A DNA stretch of 32,000 nucleotides from Gemmata obscuriglobus (GCF_008065095.1 NZ_CP042911.1:7170001-7202000); one strand, 5' to 3'; numbered from the stretch's first letter, positions 11,143 through 32,000 are shown. Numbers and translations: made by a program. Notes: generated from the sequence alone by a model not told the origin.

Positions 11143-13614
11143 TCACGGCGCGTCCAGGACCTCCCGCACCTTGAGCGCCAGCGCGTCCGGCGAGAACGGC
11201 TTGTGCAGGAAGTGCATCTGGTCCTGGAACACGCCCCGGGTCACGACCGCGTCGTCGGTGTAGCCCGAAACGAACAGCACCTTCGTCGCCGGGTGCCGCC
11301 CGCGGATCTCCTCGGCCACCTCCCGCCCGCTCGGGCCCGGCATCACCACGTCGGTCAGCACCAGTTGGATCGACGGCCCCTGGGCGCGTGCGAGGCGGAG
11401 CGCCTCCGCCCCGTCGCACGCCTCGAGCACCGTGTACCCGCAGGCGGTCAGGATGCAGCGGCTCAGCGCGCGGACGCCGTCCTCGTCCTCGACCAGGAGG
11501 ATCGTCTCCGCGCCGCGCGGCGGTCGCGTCGAAGGCGGCGGCTCGGGCGGCGGCGCCGGCGCGGCGACCTGGGGCAGGTACACGCACACGGTCGTGCCGG
11601 CCCCGGGCTCGGACTCCACCTGAACCCACCCGCCGCTGCTCTGAACCACCCCGAACACGGTCGCCAGCCCCAGCCCGGTCCCCTTCCCCACGCCCTTGGT
11701 CGTGAAGAACGGCTCGAACAGGTGCCCCTTCACCTCGACCGACATGCCGCACCCGGTGTCCGAGACGCTCAGGGTCGCGTACCGCCCGGGCGGCGCCCCG
11801 AGCCGCGCCCGGGGGTGATCCGCGCCCAGGTCGAAGGCGCCGGTGCGGATGGTCAGCTGGCCCCCCGTGGGCATGGCGTCGCGGGCGTTGATCGACAGGT
11901 TCATCAGCACCTGCTGGAGCTGGCCCGCGTCGGCGTGGGCGGCGCCCGCGTCGGCCCCCGGCAGCGTGACCAGTTGGATGTCCTCGCCGATCAGCCGGCG
12001 CAGCAGCGACTCGGCGCCCGCGACCGCGGCGTTGAGGTCCAGGTCCTGGGGCCGGAGCACCTGCTTGTGGCTGAACGACAGCAGCTGCCGGGTGAGGCCC
12101 GCGGACCGCTCGCCCGCGCTCCACACCTCGCGCAGCAGTTGGTGCGCCCGGCCGCCCGGGGGCAGCTCGGCCAGGAGGATCTCGGTGTACCCGTTGATGA
12201 CGGTGAGCAGGTTGTTGAAGTCGTGCGCCACGCCGCTGGCCAGCCGCCCGATCGCCTCCATCTTCTGCCCCTGCCGGGACTGCTCGTCGAGCAGGCGGCG
12301 GGCGGTCACGTCGCTCAGCACGCCGACGTAGTGGGTCACCCGCCCGGTCTCGTCCCGGACCGGTGAAACGGACAGCCCGTTCCAGAACGCGGTCCCGTCC
12401 CGGCGGTAGTTCAGCAGCTCGATGGCGCACGCCTCGCCGGCCGCCTGGGCGGCCCGCAGCCGGTCCACCGCGGCCCGGTCCGTGTCCCGCCCCTGAAGGA
12501 AGCGGCAGTTGCGGCCGGTCACGTCGGCCGCCGCCCACCCGGTGATCCGCTCGAACCCGGGGCTGACGTATATGAGCGGCCGGTCGGGGGCCAGGAAGTC
12601 GCAGATGACGAACCCCTGGTCGGCGCTGGTGATGGCCCGCTCCCGGAACCGCAGCGCCTGTTCGGCCGCCTTCCGCTCGGTCACGTCGGTGTGCGTGACC
12701 GCCGCCCCGGTCACCCGGTCCGCGCGGACCGGGGTGACCACCAGCCGGCACCAGCGCGGCCCGTCGTGCGTGCCGTACAGGTACTCGAACACGAACTCGG
12801 CGGCCGTCCCGGCGAGCACCGCGCCCAGCCCGTCGGCCACGTGCCGCTCGTCGGCGGCCCGGGTGCCGGCCCAGATCCCCGCGCGCACGTCCAGGTACGG
12901 GGCGCCGATGTCCCCGGCGGCCGGGCGCGCGGCCGCGGCCCGGCGCCACGCGGCGTTCACCGCGACGACCGCCCCGGCCGGGTCCAGGAGGGCGATTTGG
13001 GCCGGCAGCGCGTCGAGCGTGGCCCGGGTCTGCTCCCACGCCCGGCGCTCGGCCTCCGCGGCGGCCCGGCGGGCGACCTCGGCCGCCGCGCGGTCGCTCA
13101 CGTCCCGGACCGCGGCCGCGGCGCGGGGCTCCCCCGGCGCGCTCATCGGCCACCACTCGAGCACGACCTCGGCCGGGAACCCGCCCCCGCCGGGGCGCAC
13201 GCACCGGGCCGGGAACTCGCGCCGGTGGCCGGCCCCCAGCACCGACCTCAGGTGCCGGTGGAACGCGGCGTGGTCGCCCCCGGCCAGGAACGCGGTGAAC
13301 GGCTTGCCGCGGACCGCCCCGGCGTCGGCGCCGAGCGCCCGTGCGGCTGTTTGGTTGGCCTCCCGGATCACCCCGCGGCGGTCCAGGAACAGGATGCTCG
13401 CGGGGGCGTAGTGGAAGAGCTGCGCGTACTCGTTGCGGGACCGCTCGGCCTCCGCCTGCGCGGCCTCCAGCTCGGACTTCTGAACGACCAGCTCGGCGTG
13501 GTACACGTACAGCTCGTGCACCAGCCCGTCGAGGTCGATGCCGTTCAGGTCCGGGGCCATGACGGTGCCGTCCCGGAGGAGCTGCTCGGCGAGGTGCCGC
13601 AGGTCGGTCTGCAT
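11143..13614 (-). CDS. Hybrid sensor histidine kinase: PAS-PAS-LOV-HisKA-HATPase-receiver
   Basis: Motifs present are the H-box ASGVAHDFNNLLTVINGY, the N/G boxes NLSINARDAM, DTGCGM and GTGLGLATV, and the receiver ILLVEDEDGVR..LVLTDVVMPG..FLHKPF. The LOV motif is GRNCRFLQG. I chose ATG 13614 (MQTDLRHL, GAAAGGG upstream). An alternative GTG at 13674 would overlap the upstream gene by 26 nt. Confidence 0.9.
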   Translation of the reverse strand: MQTDLRHLAEQLLRDGTVMAPDLNGIDLDGLVHELYVYHAELVVQKSELEAAQAEAERSRNEYAQLFHYAPASILFLDRRGVIREANQTAARALGADAGAVRGKPFTAFLAGGDHAAFHRHLRSVLGAGHRREFPARCVRPGGGGFPAEVVLEWWPMSAPGEPRAAAAVRDVSDRAAAEVARRAAAEAERRAWEQTRATLDALPAQIALLDPAGAVVAVNAAWRRAAAARPAAGDIGAPYLDVRAGIWAGTRAADERHVADGLGAVLAGTAAEFVFEYLYGTHDGPRWCRLVVTPVRADRVTGAAVTHTDVTERKAAEQALRFRERAITSADQGFVICDFLAPDRPLIYVSPGFERITGWAAADVTGRNCRFLQGRDTDRAAVDRLRAAQAAGEACAIELLNYRRDGTAFWNGLSVSPVRDETGRVTHYVGVLSDVTARRLLDEQSRQGQKMEAIGRLASGVAHDFNNLLTVINGYTEILLAELPPGGRAHQLLREVWSAGERSAGLTRQLLSFSHKQVLRPQDLDLNAAVAGAESLLRRLIGEDIQLVTLPGADAGAAHADAGQLQQVLMNLSINARDAMPTGGQLTIRTGAFDLGADHPRARLGAPPGRYATLSVSDTGCGMSVEVKGHLFEPFFTTKGVGKGTGLGLATVFGVVQSSGGWVQVESEPGAGTTVCVYLPQVAAPAPPPEPPPSTRPPRGAETILLVEDEDGVRALSRCILTACGYTVLEACDGAEALRLARAQGPSIQLVLTDVVMPGPSGREVAEEIRGRHPATKVLFVSGYTDDAVVTRGVFQDQMHFLHKPFSPDALALKVREVLDAP
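12310..12642 (-). other. LOV (flavin-binding PAS) domain within the kinase; the photoactive Cys codon is at 12505..12507
   Basis: FVICDFLAPDRPLIYVSPGFERITGWAAADVTGRNCRFLQGRDTDRAAVDRLRAAQAAGEACAIELLNYRRDGTAFWNGLSVSPVRDETGRVTHYVGVLSDVT aligns by eye along its whole length with phototropin/YtvA LOV domains. Confidence 0.85.
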
Positions 13615-13648
13615 GGGCGAGGCCCTTTCTGGCGCGCCGCTAATATCC

Positions 13649-16603
13649 CTACTCTGGCCCGCCGGTCGGTTCACTGGAGTTCGGACGCCCGGTCGCGAGC
13701 CGCTCCTCGGCCTCCCGCCGCTCGGTGATGTCGAGGTGCCAGACGATGGCCCCGGCCGGCGGCTCCGCGGTCGGGAACACGCGCATCATGAACCACTGGC
13801 GGCGGCCCGGGGTGTGGCACTGGTACTCGAGGTAGAAGTCGGGCAGCCGCCGGTCGAGGACCCCCAGAATCCCGGCCCGGGCGGCCGTCGCGTCCGGGTC
13901 GGCCCCGCGGCCGCAGGCGGTCAGGTAGTTGGTCCCGGCCCCGGTGCGGGTCAGGTCCGGGTCGCCGTTCTCCCGCGCGAACTGCTCCCACGCCCGGTTC
14001 ACCATGAGGATCGTGCCGGCCCGGTCGAGGACGGCCACGTGGGCCGGGTGCGAGTTCAGGATCTCGACCGTCCGCAGCTCCCGGCGCCGGTCCGCGGTGA
14101 CGTCCAGCAGGTACACCACCACCCCGCGGAGCCGCCCGTCCGCCAGGTACGGCAGGAACCGCACCCGCAGGTGCTTCCCGTCCGGCCCCTGCACCTCGAC
14201 GGCCTCGGCGTCGCCCCCGGCCAGCACCGCCCGCGCGCGCCCCGCCAGGTCGAGCCCGGGGACCACGCTGGACAGGTGGTCGAGCGGGCGCCCGATGTCC
14301 TCCGGGATCACGTTCAGCACCCGCGACACCGCCGGCGTGAACTTGCGGATCCGCAGCCCCTCGTCCACGAACAGGATGCCCACCTCCGTGACCCGGAGCA
14401 GGTTGTCAACGTCGTCGCTCAGTTGCGTCAGCTCGTCGATCTTCTGCTGGTACTCGGCGTTGACCGTCTGCAGCTCCTCGTTGACCGACTGGAGCTCCTC
14501 GTTGGTGCTCTGGAGCTCCTCGTTGGCCGCCACCATTTCCTCGTTCGTGGCCTGGAGCTCCTCGTTGGCGGTTTCCAGCTCCTCGATGGTGGCCTGGAGG
14601 TTCTCCCGGGTCTGCTGGAGCTCCGCCTCCAGGTGCCGGAACCGGTCCGCGTCGCCGTCGCCGCCCCCGGCGGGCGCCCCCGACGGGCCGCCCGCGGGCT
14701 CCAGGAGGACCAGGAACAGGGCGTCCTGGTCCGGCACCGGTGGCAACTGACGGACCCGCAGCCGGGCGGCGCGGGGGGCGCCGTCGCCGAGGGTCACCGG
14801 CTGGGCCGTTTCCTGCCCGTCCTTGGCGGCGCGGAGCACGGCGGTGCGGATCGCGGACCCGAGTTCCGCCGGGACCATCCGGAGCAGGTCGAGGGTCGCC
14901 CGCCCGGGCGGGACGGTCAGCACATCGGCCGTGTTCCCGTAGCTGTGCAGCAGCCGGTAATCCGCGTCCACAACGAAGCACGTCTGCTCGAGCGCCCGCA
15001 CCAGTTCCTGGTGGACCCGGTCCAGCAGCACGTCGTCGCCGGTCAGCCGCGGGGCCCGGGTCGCGGGCGGGCCGGTACTGGGGGCGCGGCTCAGGGCGAG
15101 GATGTCGGTCAGCGACCCGCGCCCGCTCTGGATCGCGCGGTACACCTTCCAGCGGGTGTCGACGGTCTGGAACTGGTGCCCCAGGTGCCCCGGGTTCTCG
15201 CTGGCCCCGAGGAACAGGAACCCGCCCGGGCGCAGCGAGTACGTCAGCAGCGCCAGCGCCTTCCGCTGGAGCACCGGCTGCAGGTAGATGAGCAGGTTCC
15301 GGCACACGACCAGGGACATCCGGGTGAACGGCGGGTCCTTGACGAGGTTCTGGTACGCGAACACGACCATCTCGCGGATCGACCGGCCGACCTGGTACCC
15401 GCCGCTGGTGGGGGTGAAGTACCGGGCCAGCCGGTCCGGCGCGACGAGCGCGGCGCTGGCCGCCGGGTACACCCCGGCGGCGGCGAACGCGACCGCCTCG
15501 CGGTCCACGTCGGTGGCGAAGATCTTGACGTGGCAGCGGATCTGGTTGGCGTCGCAGTACTCGCGCAACAGGACGGCCAGCGAGTACGCCTCCTCCCCGG
15601 TCGAGCACGCCGGGGCCCACACCCGAACCGTCTCCCCCGCCGGCGCCGCGGCGAAGATCTCCGGGACCACCCGCGCCTGGAGCACCTCGAACGCCGCGGG
15701 GTCGCGGAAGAACTGGGTCACCCCGATCAGCAGCTCGCGGTACAGCGCGTCCCGCTCCTGCGGCGAGCGCTCGAGCAGCCGCACGTACTCGGCGAACCGC
15801 TCGACCCGGTTGGCGCTCATCCGCCGGTCCAACCGGCGGGTGACGGTGGCCGGCTTGTACAGCGAGAAGTCGATGCCCGCGTGCTGGCTCAGGATGTCGA
15901 ACATCTGGCGCAGGACGGCGTCGTCCGTTTCGAGCGCCGGGCCGGCCGGGGGCGGCGGGCTGGCGGCCCGCAGCTCCAGTTGGTTGACCAGTTCCGCGGG
16001 CAGTTGCTCGACCGGCAGCACCAGATCGACGAGCCCGGTGGCGATGGCGCTCCGGGGCATCCCGTCGAACCGGGCCTGGGCCTCGTCCTGAACCGCCACC
16101 AGCCCGCCCGCCTCCTTGACCGCCCGCACCCCCCGCGCCCCGTCGCTGCCGGTGCCCGACAGGATCACCCCGACCGCCCGGTCCCCGTACTCGCTCGCCA
16201 GCGACCGGAAGAACAGGTCGATCGGCAGTTGGATCCCGCTGTGCGCCACCTGCTCGGTCAGTTGGAGGCAGCCGCCGCGGATGGTGAGGTTGTTCTTCGG
16301 GGGGATCAGGTAGATCGAGTCCGGTTCCAGCGGCATCCCGTGCTCGGCCCGCAGCACCCGCATCCGCGTGTGCCGGGAGAGCAGTTCCACCATCAGGCTC
16401 TTGTAATCCGGCGACAGGTGCTGGATGACGACGAACGCCATCCCGGTGTCGACCGGGGCGTGATCGAAGAACCCTTCGAGCGCTTCAAGGCCGCCGGCGG
16501 ACGCGCCGATCGCCACAACGTGCCGGGGCGAGCCCTCACGAGTGGGCGAGTCATCGACCAGCAGGTGCTCCGGGGGCACCCCGGGGGCATCAGAAGTTCC
16601 CAT
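13649..16603 (-). CDS. CheB methylesterase - CheR methyltransferase fusion with a coiled coil and two C-terminal PAS-like domains
   Basis: CheB motifs are [23 protein letters not shown] and [11 protein letters not shown]. CheR motifs are [32 protein letters not shown] and [11 protein letters not shown]. The heptad run is [44 protein letters not shown], followed by PAS-like segments. The start is ATG 16603. Confidence 0.9.
14468..14593 (-). repeat. Six tandem 21-bp (7-codon) coding repeats specifying the NEELQxx heptad coiled coil
   Basis: Units of ctgGagctcctcgttgNNNNN start at 14468, 14489, 14510, 14531, 14552 and 14573. Confidence 0.85.
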
Positions 16604-16793
16604 GGATAACCGTCGCCAAGGCCTTCGCCGTCATCGGGTCGTCAGCGGCCGACCTCGTTCATCGGCACTTGGGGATAGACCGGATCATGGTCCGGGCGTC
16701 GAAAGTGCTTATGTGTCAGGTTATACCTTACACTGTGGCGCGATAAAGGTTACCCAGAATAACCCGAAAATTCTGACCGGGTTTGAAGCCGGG

Positions 16794-17039
16794 TTACCAT
16801 CTGCGTTCGCACAGATGGAACCCGACGCCCCAGGATGAGACCGGGTGCGTCCGCTGAGTTGGAACCAACCGCGTGGCCGCGCCTGTCACGACATCGTAGC
16901 TCGTCGTGACGGGCGCGAACTGGTCGTAAAAGTCCGGGGCGGCCCACGCGACCTCGCGCCGCGTGTGGGATGTGAACGCGGCCCGTTGAACGTTGAACAC
17001 GCCCCAGCCACCGGCTCGGAGTGGGCTCGTCTCGCTCAT
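16794..17039 (-). CDS. Possible 81-aa hypothetical protein
   Basis: From ATG 17039 the product reads MSETSPLRAGGWGVFNVQRAAFTSHTRREVAWAAPDFYDQFAPVTTSYDVVTG.... About 80% of third positions are G/C and the composition is protein-like (W/F/Y/D). I recognised no family. The ATG sits 1 nt after the terminator T-tract, and the apparent GGAGG is part of the terminator stem. Confidence 0.3.
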   Translation of the reverse strand: MSETSPLRAGGWGVFNVQRAAFTSHTRREVAWAAPDFYDQFAPVTTSYDVVTGAATRLVPTQRTHPVSSWGVGFHLCERRW

Positions 17040-17045
17040 GAAAAA

Positions 17046-17095
17046 GGCCTCCGCCGCGGCCCGATCGGAACACCGGTCGGGCCGCGGCGGAGGCC
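17046..17095 (-). terminator. Rho-independent terminator of the pseudo-receiver gene
   Basis: A 23-bp GC-rich stem (ggcctccgccgcggcccgaYcgg, one mismatch) carries a 4-nt loop. It is followed on the minus strand by TTTTT (17041..17045). It lies 34 nt after stop 17130. Confidence 0.8.
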
Positions 17096-17129
17096 AACGG
17101 GGCAAGAGACCGCCGTCAACGACGACGGG

Positions 17130-17507
17130 TCATTGCCGCACGCTCGGGAGACGCTCCCCAAGTCGGCGCATCAGCACGGACGGGTTTACCGGCCGGTTTA
17201 TCACCAGATCGTAGCCGCTGACGGAAGCACGCTCGTCGGTCACCGCGACCCGCACGGCCCCGTGACGCAGCACCCCGGAGTCGCCCGCGGCGCCCGCGAA
17301 AATGACGGCGTCGGCCTCACCGTGGAAGTCGGCCGCGGCGTCGGCGGTGAGGCGCACCTCCGCGTCCGCACCGCACTCGTCCAGCGCTTCGGCCAGTTCG
17401 ACGGCCTCAACAATGTCGGCGGTGTCCGCGACGACCAGGATGTGCGGCGGGGTGGCGAACGGGGACCGCTCACGAACCTCGGACAGGGCACGGTGATCGC
17501 GTTTCAT
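17130..17507 (-). CDS. Stand-alone receiver-like (pseudo-receiver) protein, 125 aa
   Basis: ATG 17507 is preceded by GGAAAGG. The protein has a receiver-like layout: HILVVADTADIVEAVELAEAL..., then ADAVIFAGAAGDSG, then VAVTDE, then YDLVINRPVNPSVLMRRL. The position expected for the phospho-accepting Asp is A/G. Confidence 0.6.
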   Translation of the reverse strand: MKRDHRALSEVRERSPFATPPHILVVADTADIVEAVELAEALDECGADAEVRLTADAAADFHGEADAVIFAGAAGDSGVLRHGAVRVAVTDERASVSGYDLVINRPVNPSVLMRRLGERLPSVRQ

Positions 17508-17766
17508 CGTCAAAACCTTTCCGTCTCGGTCGCAGGGCGCGAGTGGCCCAGACTGGTGGCGACCGCAATTTGTGAGAGGCGACTGAGTATCGACCAAAAC
17601 CGCTTGACTTGGCCCGACAGAAGTTACCGTACCACTCTCATCGACCTTTCACAACTCCTTTTCCTCTCATATTTGCGTTCCAGCAGCGGCACCAGCCACA
17701 AATGATTTCCCAGTAATTATTTGTGCCCGATTTGTTCCGGAGACACCGACCGATCACGGATGCCAT

Positions 17767-17823
17767 GAAAATGAGAAGGGCTACGAGGGTTCATTTTCAC
17801 CCCTCGCAGCCCTTCTCATTTTC
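17767..17823. other. Long AT-rich-armed hairpin with a 16-bp perfect outer stem plus a 6-bp inner stem
   Basis: gaaaatgagaagggct (17767..17782) pairs with agcccttctcattttc (17808..17823). Inside, cgaggg (17784..17789) pairs with ccctcg (17801..17806). The loop is 11 nt, ttcattttcac. Confidence 0.7.
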
Positions 17824-17946
17824 GACACGATTGTGACCGCCGGCGCCAAGGTTGGCAGTCGTTCGGTCGAACCGAGTTCGGTTGCCCACGATTTTTGTTC
17901 CTCTCGCGCGAGCGCTGTTCGACAGAACGGCAAAATTGTCAGCCCG

Positions 17947-17956
17947 CCCCCCCCCC
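17947..17956. repeat. C10 homopolymer in the non-coding island
   Basis: The sequence reads agcccg-cccccccccc-gcgacaaagcggg. Confidence 0.9.
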
Positions 17957-18323
17957 GCGACAAAGCGGGAGTCGCAGGCGGCACCACATTCGAGAGCCGT
18001 GCCATCAGCCGTAGGGGTGCGCTCCCGCGCCTGCTCGCGTTCGCGCCGGAGGCACCGCGAAGCGCTCGGCCCCAACGAACACCCCGGGCGGAAGCTTTTG
18101 GCGCGCGGACCGATGTTCGATCCACGTTACCTAACGTCGCGGCGCGATTCTTTGTCGTGTGCGGTTCGCGTCGTAGCAAGTTAACTTGAGATGTGTCGGA
18201 CCGCCGTGAGGCTGAGATTTAAAGGCTTTACGAAGGGCGTAAGAGCGGCAGGCGGCGCGAACTCAGTGACGCCGTGAGGCGATGTGTCGGGAACGCGATA
18301 AGGTCCGAACAAGTGGCAACCGG

Positions 18324-18380
18324 CTACCGACTACCTCACCAGAAGTCGCTCCGCTACCCACGGACTACCGCCGAGCTACC
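18324..18380. repeat. Array of five CTACC motifs, the last three spaced 11 bp apart
   Basis: CTACC occurs at 18324, 18331, 18354, 18365 and 18376 (GGTAG on the minus strand). Confidence 0.7.
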
Positions 18381-18531
18381 ACAGTTTCCCCGCCCCGCTG
18401 ACACGAAATTGCGACCGATTGTCCGGAACGTTCCGAATCGATCGGTCACCGGGGTTGAGATGATCAGGCTGAACAGCAGCCTTGTGCGCTGCGATTGAGG
18501 GCAAGCGTCTCGTACATGACCCGCCGTAGGT

Positions 18532-18616
18532 GTCGCTTTCTGACGAGCCGCGACCGCCGGGGAGCGGGATACGTGGCACCGCTCCCCGGCGGTCGCGGCT
18601 CGTCAACAAAAGCGAC
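18532..18616. repeat. 85-nt GC-rich palindromic element: a 26-bp perfect inner stem, an 8-bp outer stem and an 11-nt loop GATACGTGGCA
   Basis: gacgagccgcgaccgccggggagcgg (18542..18567) pairs with ccgctccccggcggtcgcggctcgtc (18579..18604). The outer stem is gtcgcttt (18532..18539) with aaagcgac (18609..18616). A related copy lies at 3660..3698. Confidence 0.85.
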
Positions 18617-18830
18617 ACTGCCACCGGATACGTGTATCAGGTGTAACGGGGGTTACAGTCTGTAGCGATGGCGTTGAGAAGCGGCGGCGGACGAACAAGG
18701 TTCGGTTCCCGATCGGTGCCGAGGTCGAACGATGAAATGCCGTTTTCCTGACCGGTCCGACTTTACTCTGCCGCCACGAACCGGCCGTTGGCGCCGCGGC
18801 ACGCGCCGCCCGGGCGCCACGCGATTCCGG

Positions 18831-19787
18831 TCACGCATCCATGTCCCAGACCACCACTTTACCGTTCAGTGCGGCGGCGGCGCACGTCAGGCCGTCGGGC
18901 GCGAACGCCAGCGCCGTCACCGGGCCGATGTGCCAGTCGAAGCTCGCGCCGGGTTCCCCGCGCTCGGTGTCCCAGGTGCGAATGAGCCCGTCGTGCGACG
19001 CCGTCAGCACCCGCCGGCCGTCCTGGGTAACAGCCACGGCGTTCACCTGCTTCGGGTGACCGTCGAGTGTGAGTTGCGGCGTCGCGCGGTCGGCCGGGAG
19101 CACGTACACGAATCGTCCGTTCGCGACCGCCAAGCGGCCATCGGGGAGGAACACGGCGCACCGCGTTACGGTCCCCTTCGGCTCGAACGTGAACAGCTCC
19201 TTTCGCGCCGCCACGTCGAACACCGTTACGGCGGTGTCGCCGTCCAACCCGCCGGTGACCGCCAGCCGCGCGCCGTCGGCGCTGAAACTCAGCACGCACG
19301 CCTCCCGGACGGTGGGCAGTTCCGCCTCGGCTTCGCCGGTGTCGCGGTCCACGATCGTGAGCAACGGCCGGGACCGGTTCGCGCCCCGCGGACCGATCAC
19401 CCGGCTGTGCCCGATCGCCAGCCACGAGCCCGTCGGGTCGAACGCCAGCCCGGACACGTTCTTGTACGTCGGCGGCAGGGTGCGTTTGGGCCACACGAAC
19501 CGGCGCCACTCGACCGCCCGGTCGAGCGCGGTCCACTCGACCGCGGCGACGCCACGTGCGAAATGGTCCGGCCCGCCGACCACATACCGGGTCAGGCCCG
19601 GATCGACGGCGGCGCAGGTCACGAACCGCTCGACGCGGCCCTCGCTGTCCCCGGTCGCGAGGTTCAGCCACACGGCGGCGTCCACCATCCGCGCCTCGGC
19701 GCCCCCGAGCGCCAGGAGCCGCACGCCGTCGGGGGTAAAGTGGACGCTGTGAACCCGCTTGCACTTCTTCAGCTTGTACTCGCGCAC
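18831..19787 (-). CDS. WD40 beta-propeller protein, paralog 3 of 3 (318 aa)
   Basis: The GTG start at 19787 lies 9 nt after the upstream stop, with TGAGGG acting as an SD. WD text includes LDGHPKQVNAVAVTQDGRRVLTASHDGLIRTWD. The C-terminus is FAPDGLTCAAAALNGKVVVWDMDA. Confidence 0.85.
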   Translation of the reverse strand: MREYKLKKCKRVHSVHFTPDGVRLLALGGAEARMVDAAVWLNLATGDSEGRVERFVTCAAVDPGLTRYVVGGPDHFARGVAAVEWTALDRAVEWRRFVWPKRTLPPTYKNVSGLAFDPTGSWLAIGHSRVIGPRGANRSRPLLTIVDRDTGEAEAELPTVREACVLSFSADGARLAVTGGLDGDTAVTVFDVAARKELFTFEPKGTVTRCAVFLPDGRLAVANGRFVYVLPADRATPQLTLDGHPKQVNAVAVTQDGRRVLTASHDGLIRTWDTERGEPGASFDWHIGPVTALAFAPDGLTCAAAALNGKVVVWDMDA

Positions 19788-19796
19788 GCCACACCC

Positions 19797-20861
19797 TCAC
19801 GCGTCCACGTCCCAGAGCACGATCCGACCGGCGGTGCCGCCGGCCGCGCAGGTCAGGCCGTCCGGGGCGAAGCAGACCGAGCACAGTTGCTGTGCCCCTT
19901 TCGCCCACTTGAACGTCTGGGTCACAGTTCCGGTCGCCGGGTCGAGGTACCGCGCCCGCCCGTCGGCACACACCGCGCAGATGAGCCGCCCCGACGGATG
20001 AACAGCAAAGTCGTTCACGTGAGCCAGTTCCGAACCCGTCTTCCAGGGCTTTGCGGCGCCGAGCGGGTCCGCGAACAGGCGCCCGCTGGCGCGCGACACC
20101 ACCCGCTCTCCGCCCGGGACGAACGCGACCCGGCGGACAACTCGTTCGGATTCCTCCGCAAGTGCGGGCCAGGTACGGCGGAACGAGGCGAGCACTTCCG
20201 CGCGCGCGAGTTCGACCACCAGAACACCCCCTCCGGCATCGCCGGCCGCGAACAACCGTCCGTCGGCCGAGATCGCGGCGGAATGGACGTACCGCCCCGG
20301 CGGCAGGGGAATCTCGTCGCGCCACCCCACGTCATAGATCGGCATCTGAAATGGGAGTTCGATCAGCGGGTTGATCTTCTGCTCGTAACCGAGCGGCGGT
20401 TCCCGGTACGGCCCCAGCGGGAACCGTGCCAGGTCGCGTGTGTGCGTCACTCGCCCCTGCTGGGAGAGGTGCCGCACCGCCAGCAACTCGGACCCGTCCG
20501 GGGTGAACACGATCTCGCTCAACCCAAACTCCGGCCCTGGTACAGCAGGTAAGTAGAAACCGTCTTCGGACCGGCGCGTGAGATCTTCGACGTAAATGTG
20601 AGAGCTGTGGTACACGTTCTCGGCGGCCAGGAACCGGCCGTCCGGAGACACGACCGGCTCCATCGACTCCCAGAGTATGTCGTTGTTGAGTTCGCGTGTC
20701 GTTCCGGTTGAGAGGGTGTGAACGTGGAGCGTCATCGTGCCGCCTCCAGTGCCGCCTTCACCGACCCAAATGACGAGGTCGGCGCCGCCGGCAACGAACT
20801 GGAGCCGGCGCACCGTACTGAGGTCTGCGCGCTTCGGCACCTTGAGTCGCAACTCGCGCAT
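19797..20861 (-). CDS. WD40 beta-propeller protein, paralog 2 of 3 (354 aa)
   Basis: The start is ATG 20861, after GGGGGA. Blade-like text includes SPDGRFLAA, TPDGSELLAV and SADGRLFAAG. The C-terminus is FAPDGLTCAAGGTAGRIVLWDVDA. Confidence 0.85.
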   Translation of the reverse strand: MRELRLKVPKRADLSTVRRLQFVAGGADLVIWVGEGGTGGGTMTLHVHTLSTGTTRELNNDILWESMEPVVSPDGRFLAAENVYHSSHIYVEDLTRRSEDGFYLPAVPGPEFGLSEIVFTPDGSELLAVRHLSQQGRVTHTRDLARFPLGPYREPPLGYEQKINPLIELPFQMPIYDVGWRDEIPLPPGRYVHSAAISADGRLFAAGDAGGGVLVVELARAEVLASFRRTWPALAEESERVVRRVAFVPGGERVVSRASGRLFADPLGAAKPWKTGSELAHVNDFAVHPSGRLICAVCADGRARYLDPATGTVTQTFKWAKGAQQLCSVCFAPDGLTCAAGGTAGRIVLWDVDA

Positions 20862-20893
20862 CGGTCCCCCTGTGAGGTCAGCTTACCATGCGG

Positions 20894-21934
20894 CTACACG
20901 TCCACGTCCCACACCACCACCCGCCCCTTCTCGCCGCCGGCCGCGCAGGTCAGCCCGTCGGGGGCGAACGCGACGCTGAACAACTTGCCGATCTTCCACG
21001 CCATCTCGCGCCGCAGCTTCCAGGTCGCGGTGTCCCACTCGCCGACGGTGCCGTCCTCGCGGGCCGTGAGCAGGGTGCGCCCGTCCGGGCTGAACGCGAC
21101 CCCGTTCACGTTCGCCTTCTCCTTCGGCCCGCGCAGTTGCGTGCCATCGGACAGTGCCCAGACGTGGACCTGGAACCCGTATCGCTTGTCGGCCCACCGC
21201 CCACGGACCGCGGCGAGCCGGTCCCCGTCGTCGGAGAACACTAACCGGTGAACACCGAACCGCACATACTTCATCCCCTTCAGGGTCGGAACCGACAGCA
21301 CCTCGCGCCGGTTCGATCGCCCCCACACGGTCACAGATCCGCCGGTACGGCCGAGCGCGATTCGGGCACCGTCTGGCGACACGGCGAGCGATTGCGGAGT
21401 CTCATCCGTGTGCCGCGCGAGACCGGTCGGAACGGGCAAATCGATGCGCCATCGGGGAACGGGTGCAAGCGGTGTATCGGTGGGGGCGAGCGGCACCGGC
21501 ACCTCCCAGCGACGCACCCCGCGCCGGTTCCGTATGTCGAACTCGACGGCCAGCGTGGATTGCCCGTCCGAGGTGAGCGCCGGCAGGGCCGTGTGGTCGC
21601 TTCCGAGCCGCACTGCGACGCCGGTCGCGAGGTCACAAACCGCCACCCCGCCCTCGGACGCATCATCGGCGTCGTCCCGCTCGGGGGCAACGGTGTACGC
21701 GCACCGGGTCACGTCGCGGTCGAAATCGGGGTCAGGGTAGGTGTCGTCGTCGTCCTGAAGCGGGGCGCGCCAGAGGGCGCGGCCGGCGCTCGTGTCCCAG
21801 CACAGCACGGACCCGTTGAACGGAACGCCGTTGCCGAACACGGCCGCGATCCGGGCGAGCCCGGGTGCGAGCCAGAGCCGGGTCACGTCGGTCCCGGCCT
21901 CGGGCTGTTCGGTTGCGAGTTTGAGCACCTGCAT
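20894..21934 (-). CDS. WD40 beta-propeller protein, paralog 1 of 3 (about 346 aa)
   Basis: The preferred start is ATG 21934 (MQVLKL, GAGG upstream); the track ORF extends to 21997. Blade text includes SPDGARIALGRTGGSVTVW and FSPDGRTLLTAREDGTVGEWD. The C-terminus is FAPDGLTCAAGGEKGRVVVWDVDV. Confidence 0.8.
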   Translation of the reverse strand: MQVLKLATEQPEAGTDVTRLWLAPGLARIAAVFGNGVPFNGSVLCWDTSAGRALWRAPLQDDDDTYPDPDFDRDVTRCAYTVAPERDDADDASEGGVAVCDLATGVAVRLGSDHTALPALTSDGQSTLAVEFDIRNRRGVRRWEVPVPLAPTDTPLAPVPRWRIDLPVPTGLARHTDETPQSLAVSPDGARIALGRTGGSVTVWGRSNRREVLSVPTLKGMKYVRFGVHRLVFSDDGDRLAAVRGRWADKRYGFQVHVWALSDGTQLRGPKEKANVNGVAFSPDGRTLLTAREDGTVGEWDTATWKLRREMAWKIGKLFSVAFAPDGLTCAAGGEKGRVVVWDVDV

Positions 21935-22133
21935 CGGTCCGCCTCGGTTCGTGGGAAGGCGCTCACTGAACCACAGGCGCGGCCGTTCCGCAATCACGGG
22001 AGCGGCGCGCGGGCATCAAGGCACGCAACGGACGCAAGCGATTCCAGGCGCGTCGCGCCCGGCCCGCCCCGACACCCCGCGCCCGTAAAATGGAGCACAG
22101 ACGCCGCATTCACGCAACCACGGAAGCGAAGCC

Positions 22134-29040: not shown

Positions 29041-29697
29041 TTAGAGGGTTTTCCCCGACAAACGATCCATCTCGGCACGCAAGTTCGTCCGCGCCCGCTC
29101 CTCACCCTCTGCGAACAGAATCTCCGAGTAGTAAATTCGCGGTCGCGCAAGGAACCCGTTCAGCACGCTCACGCGGCCGGCACGGTATTCGGCATCTGGC
29201 ACCCAGGCGTACTCGTTGCGAATGGCCGCGGCGTACCGGGCGTAGCGCGCTTCCGACGCTCCCAGGATGGCGAGGTCGGCGTCGAGCAGCGCCCGGGTGT
29301 CGCGGTCGCCCGGCGGCTCCGCGGCGTGCGCCGTGGCCCAGATCATGCGCACGACGCGCTCGATTGTGGACGCCGGCACCCCGATGGGGCCGAGCAAATC
29401 GACGGCCAGTTCCCCGCTCCGCTGCTCGTTGTCCTTCGCACGTGAGTCGTACACGGCGTCGTGGAACCACACCGCCAGTTGCATCGCGTTCGGGTCTTCA
29501 ATGGTTGAAGAGAGCCGCTCGATCACCCGGAACATTTCGGTCAGGTGTTCGAGGTTGTGGTAGAACCGTTCGGGGCCGCTGTACGCCGCCGCCAGCACGT
29601 CGAACGCCGGGTACGCGTCCGCGGGGGCCACGCGGTACCGCTCGAGCGTCCGCACCCACCCCTTTTGCATCGACTCCAGTCGTTCGGGCGAGACCAT
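29041..29697 (-). CDS. HD-domain metal-dependent phosphohydrolase (COG4339-like)
   Basis: The product is 218 aa from ATG 29697: ...[14 protein letters not shown]...[20 protein letters not shown]...[10 protein letters not shown]. The rest of track ORF 29041..31668 is an antisense artefact. The gene ends 53 nt upstream of clpB. Confidence 0.8.
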
Positions 29698-29812
29698 GAT
29701 GGTTCGACGGCTCCAGGTGGCGCTTGCCGCGGTCGGACGACCGCGGGTATAGTCTAAGTTACGCACTTCGCGCGTGTCCGGGCACGGTCTGTGCCGGTTC
29801 TTCGGAGCGTCG

Positions 29813-32000
29813 ATGGCCGCCACCGTCCCGCCCGCCCTCGAGCAGCGCCTCGCCGCTCTGGTTCCGCGTGTGCGGGCACTGCGGGTGGCCCGCGGGGTCA
29901 GCCGGTGTCTGTTCGCGACCGTCGGCAGCGCCGTACTCGTACTCGTACTCGACGCCCTCGTCGGCCTGCCCGAGACCGCCCGCGGGCTGCTGGTTGCGTT
30001 GTGGGTCACCGCGCTGGGCGTACTCGTCTGGCAGCTCATCCTCAAGCCGTGGCAGGCGGAGATCCCCCTTTCGGAAGTGGCGGCCGAACTGTCCCGGGGC
30101 CTCCCCGAACTGGCGGACCGGCTCAAGGCGGTCATCGCCCCCGCGAACGGTACGTCCGAGGCGGTCCGCGCGGCGCTCCTGGAAGACACGCTCCGGCGCG
30201 CGAGGGCCGTCGATTTCGAGCGGGCCGTTCCGGCGCACCCCACGCTGCTGGCGGTGTGCTGGGCGCTGCTCGCGCTGCTCGCGTTCCTGATGCTCACCGG
30301 GCTGCTGCCGAACAGCGCGGAACGGCTGCGCCGGGTCGCACTGCCGTGGGTGCGGCCGCCCGCGGCGGCGCTGCGCGTGGTGGTCACGTCGGGCGAGCCG
30401 GTGGTGCGGCGCGGCGCGGCGGTCACGCTGACCGCGTTCGCCGAGCGCACGGAGTCCCGGCGCGGCGCGCGGCCGCATCGGGCTACGGCCGTGTTCCGGG
30501 ACGCGCCCGAGTCGCCCGAAGAGTCGGTCACCATGGCGGCGGATGACGCCGGCGCGTTCCACGTCACCCGGGCGCGCGTGGCCCGCGACTTCGAGTACCG
30601 CGTCCTGATCGACGGTGCGGCCAGCGAGTGGTTCAAGGTGACCGCTCTCGACCCGGTCGACCTGGCCCCGGACACGCGCATCGAGGTCGCGCCGCCGGGG
30701 TACGTCGGGGTCCCCGCACGCGTACTTCCGGCGCTCGCCGATTTCGAGGCACTGGACGCGTCCCGGCTCACCGCTCGCTTGACGTTCACCCAGCCGGCCG
30801 CGAGCGCGCTGTTCGAGTGGCACGCGCACGGGGGCACCAAAACGGACCCGGTTCCCGTGGCCCTCGCTCCCGATCGGCTCTCCGGGACGGCGTCGCTGGT
30901 GCTTCGCACGAGCGGCGAACTGAGGCTCATTCTGTTGCGCGAGGTGGACGGTAAGAAGCTCCGCACCGTTCTGGCCGCGAACGTGATCGTGCCCCCAGAC
31001 AAGGCGCCGTGGTTCGAGACGCTGGCCGGAATCGACCCGCGGCCGCGCGCGGTGCGCCCCGGGTGGCGCGTGCCGATCGTCGTCGCCGCGTGCGACGATT
31101 TTTGCGTGTCCGGTGCCCGGCTCGAGTACACACTGGCATCGCCCGATTCGCACACGGAAGTGCTCCCCATTCCCCTCACCGGCACGGGCACCGCGCGCGC
31201 GAGCGGGCGCCTCGACTTCGATCCGTCGGCGGTCGCGCCGCCCGGCGGTACGATCCGCTTCCGGGTCCGCGTGACCGACAACCGCGCGTCCGAAGACCCG
31301 AAGCTGTTTCCCCAGGAAACGCTGTACCCCGCGACCGGGTGGAGCGAACTGACGCTCAACGCGTCCGCGCCACCGCTCGAAGAGCAGGACGCGCGGAACC
31401 AGCGGGACACGTTCCGGGCGGCGGCGGAAGCGGCCCGCGGCCCCGTGCGCGAAGCGGTCGACGCGGTGGCCGCCGTTCGCGCCGAGGTCTCGGCGGCCGG
31501 TCCGCTGAGCGTGGACCAGGCGGTCCGGTTGAACGTCGCCCGCGAGCGGGTGCGGTTCGCCGCGGCCGCGCTGGCCGCCCTCGCACGCGACGCCGCGCTG
31601 GCGCCCGAGTTCCGCCCGCTCGCGACCGCGGCGCACGACCTCACGACACACGAGCTTCGAGGCGCCAAGGAGGCGCTGGGCCGCGCCGACGCGGAAGGCG
31701 GCGGGCGCGCCGACGGGCTCGCGACCGCGGCGGCCGACTTGTCCGCCGCTCACACAAAACTGGACGCACTTCTCGCCCAGAACGACGCGCTGGCCCGCGC
31801 CCGACTCGACCGCGCCCGGCTCGGTGCGCTCGCCGCCGACCAGGCCGCGCTCGCCGGCGCCAAATTGAGCGCGAACGAGTTCGGGGCGCGCCAGCGCGAA
31901 CTCGTTGCCCGGCTGAACACACTGATCGCGGACAGCGAGCCCTTGCGGCGGGCGCTCGAAGGAGGGCGCAGCGAGGAGGCCGGCCGGTTCGCTCGCGACC
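29813..32000 (+). CDS. Large membrane protein, DUF4175-like (N-terminal TM helices, long Ala/Arg-rich coiled-coil tail); the 3' end runs off the window
   Basis: It is absent from the track because it stays open to the window end. I translated it manually from ATG 29813 with no stop through 31999. The product reads MAATVPPALEQRLAALVPRVRALRVARGVSRCLFATVGSAVLVLVLDALVGL...GLLVALWVTALGVLVWQLIL...AAELSRGLPELADRLKAV...LLAVCWALLALLAFLMLTGLL. The family name is from memory. Confidence 0.75.
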   Translation, partial: MAATVPPALEQRLAALVPRVRALRVARGVSRCLFATVGSAVLVLVLDALVGLPETARGLLVALWVTALGVLVWQLILKPWQAEIPLSEVAAELSRGLPELADRLKAVIAPANGTSEAVRAALLEDTLRRARAVDFERAVPAHPTLLAVCWALLALLAFLMLTGLLPNSAERLRRVALPWVRPPAAALRVVVTSGEPVVRRGAAVTLTAFAERTESRRGARPHRATAVFRDAPESPEESVTMAADDAGAFHVTRARVARDFEYRVLIDGAASEWFKVTALDPVDLAPDTRIEVAPPGYVGVPARVLPALADFEALDASRLTARLTFTQPAASALFEWHAHGGTKTDPVPVALAPDRLSGTASLVLRTSGELRLILLREVDGKKLRTVLAANVIVPPDKAPWFETLAGIDPRPRAVRPGWRVPIVVAACDDFCVSGARLEYTLASPDSHTEVLPIPLTGTGTARASGRLDFDPSAVAPPGGTIRFRVRVTDNRASEDPKLFPQETLYPATGWSELTLNASAPPLEEQDARNQRDTFRAAAEAARGPVREAVDAVAAVRAEVSAAGPLSVDQAVRLNVARERVRFAAAALAALARDAALAPEFRPLATAAHDLTTHELRGAKEALGRADAEGGGRADGLATAAADLSAAHTKLDALLAQNDALARARLDRARLGALAADQAALAGAKLSANEFGARQRELVARLNTLIADSEPLRRALEGGRSEEAGRFARD

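Follow-up and report, generated by a model that had tools for sequence, protein, structure and literature searches.

Reversible methylation of glutamates is the textbook memory of bacterial chemotaxis and is viewed as a property of chemoreceptor arrays. A 32-kb stretch of the Gemmata obscuriglobus chromosome (NZ_CP042911.1:7170001-7202000, GC about 70%; we call this whole stretch the window and count positions from its first letter) raises the question of what the enzymes of this memory do when they are encoded beside a light-sensing kinase. Two adjoining genes on its minus strand, here named A and B, encode a fusion of the CheB methylesterase and the CheR methyltransferase with a coiled coil and PAS domains, and a hybrid histidine kinase carrying a LOV domain. 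An initial annotation of this DNA had suggested that the pair forms a methylation-based adaptation layer wired directly to the kinase, and had named the kinase or the coiled coil of the fusion as possible substrates. In a computational follow-up we found that gene A belongs to a family whose coiled coil is more conserved than its two enzyme domains, and whose members are fused to, or adjoined by, a PAS-linked output enzyme. The adaptation function itself is what we infer from these sequences, with the coiled coil as the candidate methyl acceptor.

Results

Gene A encodes intact CheB and CheR domains and lies upstream of a LOV hybrid kinase gene

Gene A (13649..16603, minus strand) opens with an ATG, ends at the TAG at 13651-13649 and encodes 984 amino acids; gene B (11143..13614, minus strand) encodes 823 amino acids from ATG 13614. 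Both open reading frames (ORFs) lie where the initial annotation had placed them, gene B having been drawn there as 11143..13674, or 843 amino acids from GTG 13674, and both have the codon-position GC that is typical of real genes here (GC1 > GC2 << GC3, with GC3 at 0.96-0.97 and at 0.96 in gene A). For the start of gene B that annotation had allowed either the ATG, after a gap of 34 nt, or the GTG, which would overlap gene A. The ATG is favoured, since the public gene call is 823 amino acids long and the orthologue in Gemmata JC673 begins MRTDLRHLAEQ, like the MQTDLRHLAEQ that follows ATG 13614; the GTG was set aside. The spacer between the gene A stop and this ATG (13615..13648, 34 nt, read from the sequence) contains no terminator-like or promoter-like site that we could see, and orthologous gene pairs have spacers of 11-32 nt. 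The gene A protein is encoded in an identical copy in GCA_000171775.1 and is 94% identical to a protein of Gemmata sp. JC717.

At its N-terminus, gene A carries a CheB methylesterase catalytic domain (aa 30-205, 15989..16516; PF01339 over its full profile, 1-174 of 174, E 2e-60), followed by CheR_N and the CheR S-adenosylmethionine (SAM)-dependent methyltransferase domain (aa 231-486, 15146..15913; PF03705 at 231-281, E 1e-15, and PF01739 at 295-486, E 4e-50). The catalytic triad of Salmonella CheB consists of Ser164, His190 and Asp286. S35, H62 and D154 of gene A align with these residues in the full-length enzyme (1A2O), and the CheB domain also matches structures 1CHD, 3SFT and 6YMZ, while the CheR part aligns over 250 residues with 5XLY, 5FTW and 1AF7. 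In an alignment of 27 family members the triad was invariant, as were the CheR motifs CSTGEE, FFRD and CRNLLIY. Thus both catalytic domains read into gene A at the outset stood up to profile and structure comparison, and with their key residues intact they are predicted to be active enzymes. An N-terminal receiver, in contrast, was not found on this CheB with Pfam or local hidden Markov models (HMMs); the catalytic domain begins at residue 30.

Behind the enzymes, Pfam misses a PAS-like alpha/beta domain (aa 522-636, 14696..15040) that the AlphaFold2 model shows with confidence, as one helix and five strands with pLDDT mostly 65-90, and that is kept in the family at 32% mean pairwise identity. 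A single long helix (aa 652-739, 14387..14650, by DSSP on the model) leads from it to PAS_10 (aa 733-836, 14096..14407; PF13596, E 3e-19), and a C-terminal PAS domain follows (aa 848-958, 13730..14062), supported by weak PAS_8 (848-877) and TIGR00229 matches and by a PAS-type fold in the model. The coiled coil and the two PAS-like domains of the initial annotation were therefore found, and the domain at 522-636 adds a third. The model of the full-length protein has a mean pLDDT of 79 and a pTM of 0.38, at which the domain arrangement and the contacts between coil and active sites are unreadable. In the C-terminal PAS of the subtype of about 1000 amino acids we also saw the family-conserved motifs NYL..C and EY.CH (EYQCHTPG in gene A), which may be a cofactor or metal site.

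Gene B has the order PAS, PAS, LOV, HisKA, HATPase, REC (receiver), as originally read; Pfam, which reports three PAS stretches, NCBIfam and structure matches all supported it, and for both genes the NCBIfam scan agreed with the Pfam domain calls. With residues counted from the GTG, two non-LOV PAS domains (about aa 90-196 and 220-335, 12670..13407; PAS_4 and PAS matches and local HMMs, the boundaries of the second being approximate) are followed by the LOV domain (aa 345-458, 12301..12642; PAS_9 at 355-458, E 3e-32), by HisKA (aa 476-537) and HATPase_c (aa 582-702; together 11569..12249, PF00512 and PF02518, with NCBIfam PRK13557 and CckA-type kinase matches), and by a C-terminal receiver (aa 725-836, 11167..11502; PF00072, E 1e-19). 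The phosphorelay motifs read from the translation are VAHDFNNLL in the H-box and LVLTDVVMP in the receiver, and gene B thus has every part of a hybrid histidine kinase: a HisKA with its acceptor histidine, an HATPase_c and a receiver with its acceptor aspartate.

The LOV part of gene B drew blue-light kinase and YtvA-family matches from NCBIfam and aligned with solved LOV domains from phototropin, aureochrome and LOV kinases (E about 1e-33 to 1e-27) with NCRFLQ in register; in GRNCRFLQG the position of the adduct-forming cysteine coincides with that of the motif in 9VF7 and 8QI9. The active-site glutamine of strand Ibeta is replaced by leucine (YVGVLSDVT against FVGIQSDV; nt 12316-12318, minus strand), and leucine stands there also in the JC673 orthologue (locus L001). 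Around 350 natural glutamine-deficient LOV receptors, mostly with leucine or isoleucine, have been judged likely functional (PMC9098866). By its sequence, the LOV domain of gene B belongs to this known class, and flavin binding and a photocycle are predicted for it.

Pfam and phmmer searches, the latter with Escherichia coli seeds, so that divergent homologues could be missed, found neither a signalling domain of a methyl-accepting chemotaxis protein (MCP) nor CheW in the 32 kb, and Pfam found no MCP signalling hairpin in gene A or gene B. With local HMMs included, neither a second HisKA/HATPase core nor a free receiver was found in the window, gene B holding the sole copy of each, in agreement with the earlier reading that the pair stands apart from a chemotaxis core.

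The NEEL heptads are more conserved than the enzyme domains

In the AlphaFold2 model aa 652-739 of gene A form one uninterrupted 88-residue helix. Within it, at aa 673-719 (14447..14587), lies an array of heptads of the form N-E-E-L-x-[A/S]-[S/T/A/V], which also reads E-E-x-x-[A/S]-[T/S]. Five NEE[LM] heptads with a flanking TIEEL and NAEY place glutamate pairs at 674/5, 681/2, 688/9, 695/6, 702/3 and 709/10, followed by A716-E717. All 74 complete family members scanned had three to six NEE[LM] heptads. Column counts over 71 aligned members gave N-E-E in 71/71 at four of the five heptads; at the fifth the asparagine was present in 55/71 (lysine or arginine in 16) and the first glutamate in 70/71 (glutamine in one). 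Among distant members the mean pairwise identity was 0.90 for the NEEL segment, as against 0.61 for CheB, 0.53 for CheR and 0.32-0.38 for the PAS domains. Because its conservation outranks that of the two active sites, the coil is probably more than a plain structural linker. At the sequence level the heptads agree with the consensus of MCP methylation sites (PMC1079850), reading EELQAT, EELQST, EELQSV, EELQTV and EEMVAA at a spacing of seven residues, and we regard the array as a candidate methyl-accepting segment.

CheB-CheR fusions keep company with PAS-linked output enzymes

Gene A has at least 8000 homologues among the matches listed and is 43-54% identical to family members from other phyla. 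For a survey we took one genome per species (at least 600 matches listed) and kept 80 loci, which by record title come from about 15 phyla and include Methanoperedens. Pfam was run on the 74 complete survey proteins and the window protein, and 78 species-level loci were classified, 52 as stand-alone (48 of them evaluable for a partner) and 26 as fused to an output domain. The order CheB-CheR-helix-PAS_10 in one chain is a trait of this family (CheBR below) and is present in gene A; PAS_10 was found in 75/75 C-terminal parts scanned. Behind CheBR, the 74 survey proteins carry HisKA in 23 cases, a receiver in 11 and GGDEF-EAL in 2, and 26/78 loci have a kinase or GGDEF-EAL fused in cis. Among 54 same-strand downstream ORFs (window protein excluded) PAS occurred in 27, HATPase_c in 15, a receiver in 15, GGDEF in 9 and EAL in 7. 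The usual company of the CheBR family is a PAS-linked output enzyme, kinase or GGDEF-EAL, either fused or encoded by the next gene.

The initial annotation had tied its claim to the conservation of the pairing of cheBR with a LOV kinase. What is conserved is the pairing with a PAS kinase: in relatives of gene A at 87%, 68% and 54% identity, a PAS...HisKA-HATPase-REC gene follows after 11-32 nt, amid flanking genes that are unrelated, and the pairing extends across phyla. The initial interpretation is supported, with a correction on LOV. NCRFLQ was present at only 4 of the loci scanned, all planctomycete (the window, Gemmata JC673, where it lies in a separate gene, and two Planctomycetaceae metagenome-assembled genomes (MAGs)); the partner at 87%, that of JC673, retains the LOV cysteine motif, whereas those at 68% and 54% lack it. 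We therefore rejected LOV as a general partner of CheBR; it is one interchangeable, planctomycete-specific input sensor. At one MAG locus (L059) a single chain runs CheB-CheR-coil-PAS_10-PAS-LOV-HisKA-HATPase-REC, and the other (L062) has the same LOV fusion on a contig that ends just after HisKA begins; both retain the Ibeta glutamine. These cis-fused proteins are good evidence that CheBR and a light kinase work together, and the functional coupling of genes A and B is well supported.

Downstream of planctomycete fused CheBR-kinase-receiver genes at three loci (L009:11224-12039, L036:7567-8385 and L046:11250-12005) Pfam identified a gene for a CsrA RNA-binding domain with a C-terminal receiver. 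This unusual response regulator hints at a post-transcriptional output at those loci; the Gemmata window has no equivalent of it.

A signature helix marks the partners of stand-alone CheBR genes

Nearly all downstream partners, kinases and GGDEF-EAL proteins alike, open with the same helix. Its consensus is LRxxAE, about 25 residues, then HELQVHQIELEMQNEELRxAQxELExSRxRYxxLFxxAPVGY and a PAS domain, with HELQVHQIELEMQNEEL as the core. Gene B has a diverged copy, LRHLAEQ...LVHELYVYHAELVVQKSELEAAQAEAERSRNEYAQLFHYAPA (13399..13602, with the motif at nt 13506), which runs into the first PAS domain and whose core helix is VYHAELVVQKSEL. Scored with a relaxed motif pattern (a stricter regular expression misses about half of the cases), an adjoining PAS-output gene with the signature helix was found at 39/48 evaluable stand-alone loci, 35 within 700 nt after the cheBR stop, 3 just upstream and 1 inside a frameshifted ORF; a six-frame motif scan recovered the partners at L007, L018, L024 and L070, which a simple downstream-ORF finder had overlooked. 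Among the fused loci the helix was present in 0/26 (Fisher p = 1e-12). At L073 two signature-helix genes (10436 and 15405) follow cheBR. The association also held when the search was turned round and metagenome contigs were scanned for the motif first: cheBR lay immediately upstream at 38 of 63 evaluable loci, mostly ending 95-320 nt away. The query for that scan was a subset of 6 sequences, the alignment of 27 partners being too variable for a collection scan, and its sample is biased toward the canonical ELEMQNE form.

The first PAS domain of the partner is homologous to the PAS_10 of CheBR (hhalign 96%, E 3e-9). Counted back from that alignment, the QNEEL of the partner would fall on the last CheBR heptad, N715-A-E-Y. 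Because the module is absent exactly when CheBR and the output enzyme are covalently joined, we propose that the signature helix and its PAS domain are a docking element for CheBR, to which they would be expected to bind.

The likeness to a NEEL heptad also allows another explanation, in which the methyl acceptor is a glutamate of the partner's signature helix (QNEEL mostly, QKSEL in Gemmata) and its methylation biases the first PAS domain and the kinase. The helix is indeed a conserved and specific feature of the proteins that partner stand-alone CheBR genes, it looks like a single NEEL heptad and lines up with N715-A-E-Y in the hhalign register by our own count, and the second position of its pair is glutamate or glutamine in roughly nine of ten partners by eye, three having QNEQL, which recalls the E/Q variation at MCP sites. 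The pair is, however, far less conserved than the glutamate pairs of CheBR, with D, S, A, V, T, H and N all occurring, and in Gemmata and its relatives it is K/H-S-E. Its absence from all 26 fused CheBR-kinases means that it cannot be a family-wide mechanism, and the pattern of either fusion or helix suits docking better. We consider this explanation unlikely. Since the partner helix is missing from the fused members, only the NEEL coil is left as a candidate acceptor that every member of the family shares.

Chemoreceptor genes are rare around CheBR loci

If the NEEL coil is the acceptor, CheBR need not serve chemoreceptors; alternatively, CheBR could be a spare adaptation enzyme for MCPs encoded elsewhere, its PAS domains, and perhaps the light kinase, only regulating it, so that light would modulate chemotactic adaptation. 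In its favour, the two enzyme domains closely resemble true CheB and CheR and keep every key residue, an MCP gene does lie beside cheBR at a few loci (L032, L023 and L087), and in Gemmata the search was limited to the 32-kb stretch. Against this, only 5 of 163 related loci (1.7 Mb in all) had an MCP domain nearby and 0 of 163 had CheW, again with E. coli seeds that could miss divergent homologues, while what is conserved beside CheBR or fused to it is a kinase or an enzyme of cyclic di-GMP (c-di-GMP) turnover. The CheB domain also lacks the receiver through which CheA would phosphorylate it, the chimeric CheB-CheR gene of Phaeobacter inhibens lies outside the che regulon, not being co-regulated with che genes, and the near-invariant NEEL array would be left without explanation. 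Service to distant MCPs is thus improbable. Bacteroidota members do not serve as proof of independence from MCPs, chemoreceptors having been reported in Bacteroidetes (PMC7390727). At L032 (3952-5691) the MCP gene is directly upstream of cheBR on the same strand, and at L023 (1191-4819) there are two MCP genes on the opposite strand.

A further alternative keeps the NEEL coil central and dispenses with methyl turnover as the signal: the CheB and CheR domains would be sensors or scaffolds, for example of the ratio of SAM to S-adenosylhomocysteine, and would clamp or release the coil as a pseudo-substrate. Gene A is laid out like a multi-sensor input module, with three PAS-type domains, and the conservation of the coil resembles that of a binding surface. 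The esterase triad and the methyltransferase motifs, however, are invariant across about 15 phyla, which is hard to explain without catalysis, and we regard this alternative as improbable too, slightly more so than service to distant MCPs. That the adjacency is a coincidence between independent genes is scarcely credible: planctomycete genomes do encode many PAS kinases, and L001 has a second one 4 kb downstream, but both directions of search show the pairing to be kept across phyla, the two parts also occur fused in cis, the signature helix appears only when they are separate proteins, and the survey excludes chance adjacency.

Surroundings of the gene pair

Downstream of gene B lies a convergent mfd gene, and the other genes of the window encode an ABC ATPase, a DUF1579 protein, WD40 proteins, a DDAH-like enzyme, an NAD(P)HX dehydratase and ClpB. 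Three consecutive minus-strand ORFs at 18831-21997 (318, 354 and 367 amino acids) have WD40 repeats in their C-terminal parts and N-terminal halves without a Pfam match; they may be paralogues in tandem or fragments of a single disrupted gene. The segment upstream of gene A (16604-18800) has a GC content of 0.64-0.65, compared with about 0.70-0.75, and contains small ORFs without family matches, where the public annotation has genes of 125 and 81 amino acids. Long ORFs of 875 and 664 amino acids overlap at 29041-31753 on the minus strand; they have no Pfam match and an atypical codon-position GC.

Discussion

We propose that genes A and B form one signalling unit independent of chemoreceptor arrays. 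The CheR and CheB domains of gene A would add and remove methyl groups on glutamates of their own NEEL coil, whose six Glu-Glu pairs, one per heptad, would each sit in the kind of sequence that such enzymes recognise on chemoreceptors. Neutralisation of charge would alter how the helix between the PAS-like domain and PAS_10 packs, and the methylation state would pass from PAS_10 to the output enzyme, either in cis, the output kinase being fused behind PAS_10 in about a third of the family, or, where it is encoded by a neighbouring gene, through the docking helix and its PAS domain, a module that would be homologous to the CheBR helix-PAS_10 junction but shorter. For Gemmata, the expected net outcome would be a methylation memory, slow and reversible, by which a blue-light-regulated phosphorelay is reset or scaled. 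Methylation of the coil, mutual binding of the two proteins and the direction in which the kinase would be shifted are all predictions drawn from sequence comparison, and for the mechanism as a whole, an MCP-independent methylation module that uses its own coil as acceptor and hands its state to a kinase, we put the chances a little below even.

Several observations weigh against this proposal. The agreement of the heptads with the MCP consensus is partial, serine often standing in place of alanine. The upstream half of the longer MCP consensus is only half matched by the NEEL coil. Encoded glutamine at the EE positions, common in chemoreceptors, is nearly absent here (one case), and a parallel two-helix coil is expected for gene A as opposed to the antiparallel four-helix bundle of MCPs. 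The coil could instead owe its conservation to a role as pseudo-substrate, dimerisation code or binding surface. The CheB of gene A lacks the receiver that closes the feedback loop in chemotaxis, so that true adaptation as opposed to mere modification is not apparent, and at the Gemmata locus the search for MCP and che genes spans 32 kb, and other parts of the genome may encode MCPs. Finally, in the motif-first search 23 of the 63 loci had no cheBR beside the signature helix within the sequence covered (L091, L092, L100-L103, L108, L109 and 15 more), and 2 had a distant or partial match; such orphan proteins may share a CheBR that acts in trans on several partners, or the helix may do more than pair with CheBR.

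Compared with the adaptation of MCPs by CheR and CheB, as known for Tar and Tsr of E. coli and Salmonella, gene A has homologous enzyme domains with the catalytic residues kept; it differs in carrying both enzymes in one chain with a CheB that has no receiver, in a setting where no MCP signalling domain, CheA or CheW was found at the Gemmata locus and hardly any MCP and no CheW in the family neighbourhoods given above, and in having as output, in place of CheA, a HisKA kinase of the classical type or an enzyme of c-di-GMP turnover. In its proposed function gene A thus resembles chemoreceptor adaptation, while it lacks the MCP signalling hairpin and the CheA/CheW context. Outputs such as a diguanylate cyclase or developmental regulators are served by pathways of the Wsp, Frz and Che3 type. 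These pathways likewise use CheR and CheB homologues for non-flagellar ends (Frz: PMC2535941), but they keep an MCP-like receptor, CheA and CheW, none of which was found near the Gemmata CheBR gene. Gene B, for its part, has an NCRFLQ LOV domain upstream of the kinase core, like Brucella LOV-HK and other solved LOV kinases; to these it adds two PAS domains and the signature helix before LOV, a receiver after the kinase core, leucine for the active-site glutamine and a methylation module as its neighbour.

The CheB/CheR fusion family, presumably KEGG K13924, is already known. Gene A is a typical member, with the architecture of the proteins that JGI names 'two-component system, chemotaxis family, CheB/CheR fusion protein'. 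In the searchable literature we found no functional study of it, only passing mentions, of a 'CheB-CheR hybrid' in the Rhodospirillum centenum genome paper (PMC2890560) and of the chimeric gene in work on P. inhibens, and no description of the NEEL array or the partner helix motif. The logic of the module and the candidate acceptor and docking elements therefore appear to be new. We suggest, tentatively and as a claim that may well not hold, that the family makes up a second class of methyl-accepting signalling proteins, one independent of MCPs, in which the NEEL coil is methylated and demethylated by the tethered enzymes and its state is passed to kinases or c-di-GMP enzymes covalently or via the HELQVHQIELEMQNEEL helix, with an adapting blue-light kinase as its form in Gemmata.

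Across about 15 phyla, including an archaeon, a CheB/CheR pair is wired directly to ordinary sensor kinases of the PAS type and to enzymes of c-di-GMP turnover. In place of a vague annotation the survey offers a candidate acceptor segment of six Glu-Glu pairs, a putative docking helix, and natural fused and split versions that can be compared with each other. If the proposal is true, methylation-based adaptation would be a general add-on for two-component and c-di-GMP signalling, and the LOV versions of Gemmata and other planctomycetes would offer a light-triggerable system for measuring adaptation, and perhaps a component for optogenetic kinases that adapt.

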